Shown in pieces: positions 13,701 to 16,700 of a stretch of DNA of 64,000 nucleotides (within the stretch, counting starts at the first letter, position 1; each line of letters begins with the position of its first letter). A program made the translations under genes and the position numbers. The stretch lies in contig OX638151.1 in assembly GCA_951804945.1 (NCBI GenBank), forward strand, positions 33,356,001 through 33,420,000, read 5' to 3'. The stretch comes from Podarcis cretensis (Eukaryota). The notes under the pieces were generated by a model. That model worked only from the letters and a program-made list of their open reading frames with translations. It ran no database searches and had not been told where the DNA came from.

Positions 13701-16700
13701 TGGACATTAACGCAGTAATAAGAAGATGATCTGAATTCCCCTTTGGATCTTGAAGTATGGGTTCCCCCAACAAAATTTAAAAATTTGGCTTTGTAATTCG
13801 GAATTTATATGATGTGATTTAATTTGATGTGATTGGCCAGTTAATAAAAATTATTTTTAAAAAAAAGAAATGTGTGTGTAGTGGTCAAGCTCATGAGACC
13901 TTTTTCCTGACCACCTGTAGATTAGCAGTGGAGGAACCTGTAGTCCTCTCAGTTCTGTTGGACTCTGACTCCTCACCCAGCATGGCCTAGTGGTCATAGA
14001 AACTGGGAGTCCTATATGGAAGGCCACTGCTTCCCCACATCTCTTGTTATAACTAAAAAGATGATTCTACATTCTACATTAGTATGGAAAGGATAGATCG
14101 CTGGTTTTAAAAGAGATGTCTGGGTTCTTTAGTCAATTCTGCAGCTCTCAAGCAAACCCCCTCTTTCCAGGGAGAAGCTAGGAGGAAAGGGGTGAAAAAA
14201 GGGTGAGGCAGAGACGTGAAGGATACTGCCTGTTTGGCTGCCTGGAGTAGAAGACCAGAAGGGGTGAATTTTAAATCGTGCTGCCTCTCATTCAGAGGAT
14301 AACAGGGAAATCAGCCTTTAGAATCGTTCTGGAAAGGAGATAGAAGAGAAGAAGAGTTTGGATTTGATATCCCGCTTTATCACTACCCAAAGGAGTCTCA
14401 AAGCGGCTAACATTCTCCTTTCCCTTCCTCCCCCACAACAAACGCTCTGTGAGGTGAGTGGGGCTGAGAGACTTCAGGGAAGTGTGACTAGCCCAAGGTC
14501 ACCCAGCAGCTGCATGTGGAGGAGCGGAGACCTGAACCCAGTTCCCCAGATTATGAGTCTATCGCTCTTAACCACTACACCACACTGGCTTTCATAAACA
14601 TCAATTGTTCACAGCTGGTGAGGAAAACAGGGGCAGTAAAGCAGGACCAGGATATTTAGGCTCAACACTCAGAAGACAACCTTTGCAATCCTATAACACG
14701 GTTTAGGCTGATACAAGGTAGGCTTTGCAAATGCTCTCCCAATGGACCTCTTCCAGTAAAGGTTGGAGAGGCATCAGAGAACATTTCAGATATCTTAGAC
14801 TGCGATCCTTAACACACCTAGTAGGTGTGGGATTTACACATTTTGGGTAATGTTGCATGGAACAACTGTTAAGAATAGGGAGTGGGCACGAAAGGGATGG
14901 CTCATTTGGTAGCAGGTGCTCTCCAGCTAGTGAGTGCAAGTTTTGATCTGGCATTTGCTGTGTTCCTGAAGATGTCCTTCCACTTAATAGTGAAATCAAT
15001 ACGGAACATCAGGAAATGGCAATATCAATAAAAAATAATAGCAGTAAGTTCTGTAGGTTTCCTCTTTGAGTTTACCTCTGCGATTCCAGGTCAAGTTTGT
15101 TTTTCTGATGAAGTCAAAAGATGTATCCTGTGGCTGCCTCTTGTCTCCACCTGCCCATCTTGTCATTCATTCTAAAAAGTGTATCTGAAGAAGTGTGCAT
15201 GCACACGAAAGCTCATACCAAGAACTAACTTAGTTGGTCTTTAAGGTGCTACTGGAAGGAATTTTTTTATTTTGTTTATTCTAAAAAGACTTTTCAAATG
15301 AAGCATCACGGCTCACTTTTTTGCTGCTGTTCTCTTCCGAAGAGGAGCAACAGTATGATTTTGTCGGTAGAGTTTGGCTGTTAAGAGCTGCTGCTAAAAT
15401 TATGGGGTAAAGTCCCCCAGCTCACAATACCCAAATAACCCCTTTCAGAGAAGAGTTAAAGTGCCGTGAGCTTATTTTCCAAGGCATGAGAGACCTTGGA
15501 CCCACCAGCCAACTTGTCTTTGGCTGTTCCCATTCAAGCTATCCTGGAAAGAGAAAAAAAAAGGTGTGCAAAAGTTTATGTCCATCGTGCATTCTGGATG
15601 AGATTCACTGTGTCTGTCAAGCAAGCCAAGTAAAAATAGCTCTGTTGGTCACTGCTAACCTTCCAAGCTGTGCTTACGGCAGCAGAGGAAAAATTAGAGG
15701 TGATCCCAGATGGCTGTTGGGAAGGACAGTCCTTCCACGGCCGTGAAATGAAATCCAGTCTCTACATGCCCTCTTCTGTCAGGAGAGGAGTGTTGAGTTG
15801 TGCTTCAAGGTCAGTAAACAGATTTGTTGCAGCAGTACCTGCTCAGAGCCTCCAATCAGTTTCAGTATTTCAGGAACAAATAAGTTAGGAGTCCATGGCC
15901 CAGCAAATAGAAATCCCTGCCCTGTGAAGCCTTCATGATTTTGCTTCAAACTTCATTAAAAGGGTGGGGTTTCTTGGGATTATACTGTCTCAGGATGCAG
16001 AAGGAGATACTGTTCATGTATGTCACCACAGCAGCAAGAATTCTTGTGGTTAGGAAGTGGAAAAACGAAACAATACCGACAATCACAGGATTGGCAGATA
16101 CTCATATTAGAATATTTACAACTAGCAAAACTGACAGGAAGAGTTAAAGGAGTATTGAACCAGAAAATATTTGGAGAATGGAGAATATTTAAGGATTATA
16201 TAAGATCATATTGTACCAACCACACCATATTAGCAGAACTTGAGTGATACTTGTAAACACAACAAATACCATTTGTGGAGTAGATGGGAACAATATTAAA
16301 GAATATAAAATTGTGCGGGGAAAACCGACGACAGTATAAACAGTACAATGAGAATGATTAGAAGACTCGTTTTGTCAGAAGTCTTTTTTATTTACGTGTT
16401 TATTTAAGTATTAATTAGGAAGATTAAGTTTTTTTTATGCACGTAAATCTGATTTTTCTTTCTTTTTTCTGTATTTTCTTCTTAATTGTTTTTTCTTTAG
16501 TTTTCTTTTTGTAGTATGAGATTGTAAATTCTTTGTATATGTGTGTAATTTAAATTAATAAAGATTATTTAATTATTAACAGCAACAAAAAAGATGCAGA
16601 AGGAGAATTGTTATTGTTATTATTTATTAAATTTATCTGCCACCCTTCATCCTAGATCTCAGGGTGGTTCACAATATAAAAATACAACATGAATACATAA

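Follow-up and report, generated by a model that had tools for sequence, protein, structure and literature searches.

The 64,000-nucleotide (nt) stretch of Podarcis cretensis DNA analysed here (contig OX638151.1, positions 33,356,001 to 33,420,000; hereafter the window) carries the gene COQ8A on its + strand. A tblastn search with COQ8A of Podarcis muralis located the exons for residues 194-650 on this strand, the last of them 98% identical to the P. muralis gene, and found no exon for residues 1-193 in the window. One GT..AG intron of COQ8A holds a 98-nt insert, 4.5 kb from the splice donor and 2.3 kb from the acceptor, which is bracketed by a direct repeat and opens with a small hammerhead ribozyme motif (Table 1). 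The number 5 given to the host intron at first pass fits human exon numbering; the first exons lie outside the window. The exon mapping places the insert in sense orientation to its host gene, in agreement with a first-pass annotation made from the sequence alone.

The repeat, ATTCTAAAAAG, occurs as two exact 11-bp copies at 15169-15179 and 15278-15288, enclosing the 98 nt at 15180-15277. On its own, a direct repeat of this kind is weak evidence for an insertion, such repeats being common by chance. Shuffled windows contained a mean of 5.2 11-mer repeats at such spacing (60 shuffles), and the real window contains 21 overlapping 11-mer repeat matches at comparable spacing; an 11-mer repeat was correctly placed around just 0.33% of 20,000 random positions. 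The case is carried by sequencing reads from four of 24 runs, which were aligned to 14930-15530: X1 (organism A), X12 (organism F), X14 (organism G) and the RNA run X24 (organism H). All three runs from other organisms, X12, X14 and X24, show an empty site in which exactly 109 bases are skipped. As 109 is the sum of the 98-nt insert and one 11-bp repeat copy, the repeat is a target-site duplication (TSD), and because 11 letters fit on either side of the skip in X14 and X24, the duplication is fixed at 11 bp. In X1, from the best-matching organism, both insert junctions are present and no bases are skipped, in contigs none of which spans the whole stretch; X1 is possibly the source sample and hence no independent confirmation. 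Over 492 flanking bases, organism F differs from the window at 8 positions (plus one gap) and organism G at 6, which makes the insertion younger than about 1.5% divergence. The insertion is therefore confirmed as real and young, and the perfect 11-bp repeat and the recent TSD-flanked insertion of the first-pass annotation both stand. Four RNA reads from organism H (two starts) cross the empty site, and in each of them the first mate maps to the minus strand, the arrangement that a standard stranded library would give for sense intronic RNA.

A complete minimal type-I hammerhead opens the insert, in the same orientation as COQ8A and with a predicted cleavage site at 15214/15215. Helix II and its loop together form a perfect palindrome of 14 nt. 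A descriptor for minimal hammerheads, scanned over both strands of the window, matched only this motif. In 400 dinucleotide shuffles, the loosest setting (helix I of at least 3 pairs, helix II of at least 4, wobble pairs allowed) gave five matches in total and the stringency of the element itself (4 + 5 Watson-Crick pairs) gave none. The motif combines a CUGANGA...GAAA...UH type-I core, an unpaired base before the pair G10.1-C11.1 and palindromic positions 15.2-16.2 that leave helix III unstable. It has neither the 6-bp helix I nor the loop-loop contacts of canonical type-I hammerheads; its helix I has 4 bp and loop 3 is absent. Stem I, the core with its extra A, stem II, GAAA, the AGCU palindrome and the UH site had all been proposed at first pass, and the descriptor recovers each of them. 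Rfam models, by contrast, returned no hammerhead for 14500-16000, just four weak unrelated matches, and nothing at the gathering score in the whole window, a miss that probably reflects models not covering a loop-less helix III rather than evidence against a hammerhead. Folding z-scores of 0.25 and 1.31, the latter for the whole insert, were uninformative. The description of the insert as little more than a hammerhead needs a qualification: the ribozyme takes up only 38 of its 98 nt, and the remaining 60 are family sequence with a T-rich tract at the end. Two motif matches with two mismatches each, at 10740 and 61838, were taken as chance, and a short repeat at 44091-44125 that contains CTGAAGA has neither helix II nor GAAA.

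Table 1. Coordinates of the COQ8A host intron, the insertion and its parts within the window (TSD, target-site duplication)
Feature	Positions	Strand	Details
COQ8A host intron	10639..17558	+	GT..AG, between exons for about residues 222-246 and 247-287 of P0001
Left TSD copy	15169..15179	+	Exact repeat; empty-site joint; loose ends breaking at 15178
Insertion, tail-less copy of an abundant repeat family	15180..15277	+	109-base skip in X12, X14 and X24; both junctions in X1
Helix I, 5' arm	15181..15184	+	4 Watson-Crick pairs with 15215-15218
Core C3-A9 (CUGAAGA, 15185-91) and unpaired A15192	15185..15192	+	Descriptor; consensus CUGANGAH in PMC4209133 Fig. S3
Helix II, 5 bp (15193-97/15202-06), G10.1-C11.1 = G15193-C15206, 4-nt loop	15193..15206	+	
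G12-A13-A14-A15.1 (GAAA, 15207-10), palindromic loop-less helix III AGCU (15210-13), H17 = C15214	15207..15214	+	
Helix I, 3' arm	15215..15218	+	Descriptor scan and folding
Family body downstream of the ribozyme, with greater variation among copies	15219..15261	+	Variants at 15220, 15222, 15226, 15227, 15241 and 15261
T-rich 3' end	15262..15277	+	Loose ends behind 15268, 15274, 15276 and 15277; other copies continue into an AC-rich tail
Right TSD copy	15278..15288	+	Exact repeat; empty sites

The insert is one member of an abundant repeat family. Contigs of the family on the insert number 9,549, 8,058 and 13,610 in the three DNA runs, and depth, flat on the flanks, is four to five orders of magnitude higher on the insert. 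Some 1,020-1,040 contigs per DNA run extend from the insert into unlike flanking sequence. The ratio of summed insert depth to flank depth, 44,000-329,000, or 1,400-10,600 if each position is counted 31 times, is no copy number; together the data suggest thousands of copies or more. Family ends were read from the six best-supported loose ends per run, and among these all 5' ends fall at 15178-81. The best-supported 5' boundary listed is 15181 (66, 75 and 69 contigs in the three DNA runs, agreement 0.36-0.37), and beyond it the flanks are AT-rich and unrelated between copies. The contig counts and loose ends thus bear out the expectation of a high-copy family with a preferred 5' end. A further 27-41 contigs break before 15178 into a common upstream sequence that ends in a pyrimidine tract, so longer family forms exist, and in RNA (X24) the upstream-extended form dominates the loose ends (302 reads, agreement 0.91). 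The AG at 15178-79, where the left TSD ends, also matches the upstream sequence of the family and likely gave the 5' junction a microhomology of 2 nt. On the 3' side, copies either stop within the T-tract or continue into a common AC-rich extension behind 15274-77, which was seen in all four runs and is lacking in the COQ8A copy.

Two kinds of internal joint were found among those listed. At the family level, at least six opposite-strand joints connect 15178-81 to inner points at 15215-46, each with 1-3 contigs or reads per run. In X14, at least five joints lead from 15254-15268 back to 15179-81; if their direction is read correctly, these look like head-to-tail dimers. No such going-back joint is listed for the RNA run X24 (one library, 12% read). 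At all listed variable places of the insert the window carries the majority letter. No variant reaches 5% in 15181-15206 in any of the three DNA runs, and C17U makes up 5-12% of family DNA depth. The window contains no second copy, tail or upstream motif of the family (blastn, nhmmer), and a degenerate family pattern had no hits in viral or in metagenome contigs. A literature search found four short family motifs in no paper, and by title and abstract no description of the family from lacertids; Repbase, Dfam and subscription papers were outside its scope, so the family may already be catalogued.

We consider it probable that the 98 nt were inserted recently and derive from an abundant lizard repeat, likely the terminal repeat (pseudo-long terminal repeat, pLTR) of a Penelope-like element (PLE), and that the hammerhead is probably silent in the intron. 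Structurally, the COQ8A insert likely belongs to a known class of elements, as the terminal part of a PLE that bears a minimal hammerhead; membership of the PLEs rests on structure because no autonomous partner was found. PLE anatomy includes an optional tail, inverted 5'-truncated neighbours and partial tandems (PMC8557442, PMC8969392), and Penelope-like elements are described with 8-10-bp TSDs, a tail, an inverted pLTR, a microhomology junction and solo pLTRs (PMC3846280). The lizard family has counterparts to these traits. The optional 3' tail of 30-40 bp in endonuclease-positive (EN+) PLEs corresponds at the family level to the AC-rich extension, and the inverted 5'-truncated neighbour likewise appears at the family level and not in the COQ8A copy. 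A TSD of about 8-12 bp at an AT-rich site is found at the locus itself, with 11 bp and an empty site in three runs. Minimal hammerheads, which are defined by four traits that the COQ8A motif all shows, are mostly single motifs "probably related to truncated PLEs", and solo copies are spread through animal genomes, including those of reptiles (turtle, snakes) (PMC4209133). The green anole, too, has many Penelope insertions, which are frequently polymorphic (PMC7561263).

The closest published motif we compared is the minimal hammerhead of the turtle Chrysemys picta bellii (PMC4209133 Fig. S3). It shares with the lizard motif the CUGANGAH core, the unpaired base, the G10.1-C11.1 pair, a 4-bp helix I and the palindrome, and it too occurs mostly as solo copies dispersed through the genome. 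In a comparison by eye of this single sequence pair, made from PDF text in which the GAAA column is detached, 14 of the 18 bases of helices I and II are equal and the other four amount to two two-sided changes. Helix I reads GCAU/AUGC in the turtle and GUAU/AUAC in the lizard (C-G to U-A), and helix II GUGGG/CCCAC and GUGUG/CACAC, respectively (G-C to U-A). Covariation is thus seen as one two-sided change per helix against the turtle row only, and within the family no stem variant reaches 5% in the three DNA runs. The two also differ. The lizard family has a lacertid host, whereas the reptile rows of Fig. S3 are from turtle and pit viper; H17 is C in the lizard and U in the turtle; and the lizard loop II has 4 nt, which makes helix II a 14-nt palindrome.

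Among elements with known biology, the Poseidon element PAc of Anolis carolinensis (PMC11167929) is also a lizard PLE with the same hammerhead layout, an optional AC-rich tail and AT-rich (ATT) targets, and it likewise has no RNA-seq ends at its cleavage site. Its sequence is different. The open reading frame of PAc begins at helix II and its in-vitro template has 126 nt of untranslated region before helix II, whereas most short copies of the lizard family begin at helix I and no open reading frame is linked to them. In Penelope of Drosophila virilis, the 3' end of an intron abuts helix I (PMC4209133; PMC2377424). The longer lizard copies resemble it, with a pyrimidine tract and then an AG one base before helix I, and may be spliced in a similar way. 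Unlike in D. virilis, the commonest lizard boundary, 15181, lies one base 3' of the would-be exon start.

Several points weigh against the assignment to PLEs. The Chrysemys row bears no mark of PLE association in PMC4209133, and no reading frame for a reverse transcriptase or GIY-YIG domain is linked to the lizard family. The strongly preferred 5' end is more reminiscent of a short interspersed element (SINE) than of random 5' truncation, and the head-to-tail-like joints of X14, with direction as we read it, could mark a retrozyme-type source. The anole data, moreover, come from a Poseidon element, which may or may not be related to the lizard family. A classical SINE was rejected: the insert gave no tRNA call and no Rfam match, and its 5' end is the hammerhead itself. 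Of the first-pass label, a retrozyme/SINE-like Penelope derivative, the Penelope-type minimal hammerhead holds, but a unit separate from an ordinary short PLE terminal product is not established.

How a PLE terminal repeat could have reached COQ8A is suggested by the anole element. Its protein introduces nicks into AT-rich DNA, ATT being the most frequent site, and initiates reverse transcription at two internal, closely spaced positions of the RNA that delimit the tail and lack homology to the target; insertion proceeds as usual when the hammerhead is mutated (PMC11167929). A PLE protein acting in trans may have nicked the AT-rich target here, and the duplication begins with ATT. The tail-less start site, where the U-rich tract ends, would have served for internal initiation of reverse transcription on the RNA, and synthesis over some 98 nt would have reached the base of helix I, a point at which many copies stop. 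Transcription start, a stop of the reverse transcriptase and the acceptor-like AG are candidate causes of this stop. The 5' junction would then have been closed via the 2-nt AG microhomology, and nicks 11 bp apart would have produced the 11-bp duplication. Once in place, the COQ8A copy would be removed with the intron.

An alternative that we regard as unlikely, though it is the strongest of the rivals, is that the family is an independent, non-autonomous unit of the retrozyme kind. Its transcripts would be short head-to-tail dimers, which paired hammerheads cleave; the products might become circular before a PLE protein copies them, and the COQ8A copy would then be an inactive monomer. Non-LTR retrozymes are similarly short and non-coding, with a type-I hammerhead, a long TSD, a relation to PLEs and dispersed monomers (PMC7229834; bioRxiv 10.64898/2026.07.22.740005). 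Those of reptiles average 176 bp, derive from pLTRs and include dispersed monomers, and minimal motifs are admitted among retrozymes as well (bioRxiv 10.64898/2026.07.22.740005). The preferred 5' boundary at 15179-81, the apparent head-to-tail joints and the invariance of 15181-15206 fit such a unit. However, a linear cleavage product would begin at the cleavage site, 15215, and the copies do not; in family RNA, read ends do not pile up anywhere, and the loose ends of that RNA are dominated by the longer, upstream-extended form. Classical retrozymes, moreover, consist of 150-450-bp tandem repeats in which the type-I hammerhead is canonical (PMC7229834), and eight of nine frog dimers were not cleaved (bioRxiv 10.64898/2026.07.22.740005). 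Whereas retrozymes form tandem repeats with the hammerhead in at least two consecutive units, the COQ8A copy is a solo monomer with a minimal hammerhead, and dimers are only suggested for the family.

The family RNA in X24, which is present on both strands, carries a pattern of base changes of its own. A-to-G changes were found in 895 of 4,575 calls at 10 sites in first-mate-minus reads, against 71 of 4,496 on the other strand; T-to-C changes in first-mate-plus reads amounted to 329 of 2,692 calls at 6 sites, against 58 of 2,862. Two sites whose change is frequent in DNA as well, 15269 (A>G) and 15241 (T>C), were excluded, and 15227, also a DNA variant, was retained; the five other A sites that were computed stand at 0.01-0.4% in DNA. 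At all 16 changed sites the 5' neighbour is U or A (16 of 25 such positions, as against 0 of 21 with a G or C neighbour; Fisher p = 3e-6 over 15181-15261, counting sites of at least 5% only). Strand-specific A-to-G change with this neighbour bias is the signature of ADAR, read here with DNA and RNA from different organisms and from reads that pool many loci and are not independent. The changes reach 37% and are restricted to 15209-15244. None is listed in 15181-15206, a gap that may correspond to the unpaired part of inverted pairs or to a mapping effect. Of the sense RNA reads, 13% have G at A14, 17% at A15.1 and 21% at one helix I adenosine, and editing at these positions would lower ribozyme activity. 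Inverted family pairs elsewhere in the genome likely form double-stranded RNA that would be edited by ADAR, core adenosines included. Heavy A-to-I editing of lizard Penelope repeats, at more than 40,000 sites, has been reported (Porath et al. 2017, PMC5625713), with the same depletion of G 5' of the edited A. That report concerns other species and probably another family, and in its available text the edits are not placed on a hammerhead core. Our literature search, which left subscription papers outside its scope, returned by title and abstract no report of editing of retrotransposon hammerheads.

In family DNA, the change G12A (15207 G>A) makes up 12%, 13% and 20% of depth in the three runs, and the mirror CpG change, C>T at 15206, is not listed at 5% or more. 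A catalytically dead G12A sub-family that spreads would fit these shares, which may also contain a detection bias, and they fit catalysis that is not needed for spread. Taking the helix I starts, the G12A share and the ADAR-like changes at core adenosines together, we lean toward a fold that marks the end of the copied RNA, with catalysis dispensable or suppressed.

A bolder reading, more speculative still than the retrozyme-like unit, combines these observations into a ribozyme-only mobile unit. Its 5' end would be set by the base of helix I or the adjoining splice acceptor, it would spread from tandem dimers by means of a borrowed Penelope protein, and ADAR editing of A14 and A15.1 in transcripts of inverted pairs would silence the ribozyme. 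If true, this would be the smallest retrozyme-like element of vertebrates and an example of a retrotransposon ribozyme controlled by RNA editing.

That the intronic copy cleaves COQ8A pre-mRNA to a meaningful extent, in trans or with the help of a protein, and so alters COQ8A output, is in our view improbable. The core positions are all intact, the orientation is sense, family RNA exists on both strands and protein-assisted cutting is known for the anole element (PMC11167929). However, helix III is unable to close within one copy, so a second copy or the protein of the element would be needed, and neither is expected on COQ8A pre-mRNA. In the window, which extends 15 kb upstream and 49 kb downstream of the insert, blastn and nhmmer found no partner copy, and helix III between two molecules would have only 4 bp. 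Folding points in the same direction. Helix II is predicted with a pair probability of 0.54-0.98 at 37 °C in five contexts, helix I with only 0.01-0.06 in three contexts with the whole element, and helices I and II together with a free core with 0.002-0.011 in the same three; the body at 15219-15261 can pair with the 5' arm and the core and so competes with helix I. For the 38-mer, the best dimer has an energy of -30.6 kcal/mol, the catalytic type of dimer -11.1 and two monomers -14.6, in calculations that leave aside tertiary contacts and proteins. The best dimer is the duplex of the 14-nt helix II palindrome, which favours non-catalytic pairing in trans.

Published minimal hammerheads behave similarly. 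Single motifs gave no cleavage in vitro and dimers little, even in cis (PMC4209133), eight of nine tested frog dimers were inactive (bioRxiv 10.64898/2026.07.22.740005) and the anole PLE hammerhead cleaves only with protein, with no RNA-seq ends at the site (PMC11167929); dimer cleavage (Lunse et al. 2017) is cited in a review (PMC6765202). Among 1,291 family RNA reads in X24 no place shows many molecule starts or ends, the predicted site included, which is a weak test. The copy is missing in three relatives, which argues against a conserved role. Splicing might go ahead even after cleavage, the nearest splice site being 2.3 kb away. On the other side, helix I has a probability of 0.44 if the RNA ends at 15260 and of 0.70 in the isolated 38-mer, which would leave a short co-transcriptional window for cleavage. 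The organism of the RNA run has an empty COQ8A site, which makes its reads uninformative on the COQ8A copy, and ribozyme ends are poorly captured by RNA-seq with random priming. On balance, cleavage of COQ8A RNA by the lone copy is unlikely. Of the two fates offered at first pass, cleavage of the intron in trans is not supported, as folding, the lack of a partner and the RNA reads lean against it, and the same evidence favours a copy that would be inert as a monomer.

The frequency of 11-mer repeats in shuffled windows, the z-score of the whole insert and the missing Rfam match might speak for an assembly artefact, or for a direct repeat and a hammerhead that arose by chance. This alternative has a negligible probability and is refuted by the exact 109-base skips, both junctions in X1, thousands of family contigs, the lack of matches in 400 shuffles at the stringency of the element and the match to a published motif with two-sided changes.

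The single COQ8A locus carries little weight in itself: it adds another young copy to the many that exist, and its greatest use would be as a presence/absence marker in wall lizards. The filled and empty COQ8A alleles of close relatives do offer a natural comparison for the effect of solo intronic copies on host RNA. The family is of wider interest as a recently active test bed for the role of minimal hammerheads in PLEs, whose function is called unclear in PMC8557442.

The window holds several further features around the insertion. The insert brings a branch-point-like CTAAC (15225-29) and the T-tract, and downstream of both the right TSD ends in AAG. The putative cryptic acceptor at this point looks weak, with a run of A before the AG and no read support; 10 of the 11 COQ8A acceptors listed are CAG or TAG after a pyrimidine tract. 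A donor-like GGG/GTAAAG lies near 15406, and one open frame runs across 15289-15405. Two SINE-like copies in neighbouring COQ8A introns (14342-14597 and 20322-20578) are 92% identical, in opposite orientation and 5.7 kb apart, and pairing between them could yield double-stranded RNA spanning the exon at 17559; the first contains a weak tRNA-like match at 14517-14581. An old pair of repeat copies, at 16611-17191 and 44106-44580, is 68-76% alike and in opposite orientation. Its translation resembles what we take to be a C-terminal stretch of a long interspersed element, and the piece tested had no Pfam match. Two palindromic, self-inverted elements similar to miniature inverted-repeat transposable elements lie at 28019-28154 (about 137 bp) and 4719-4876 (about 160 bp).

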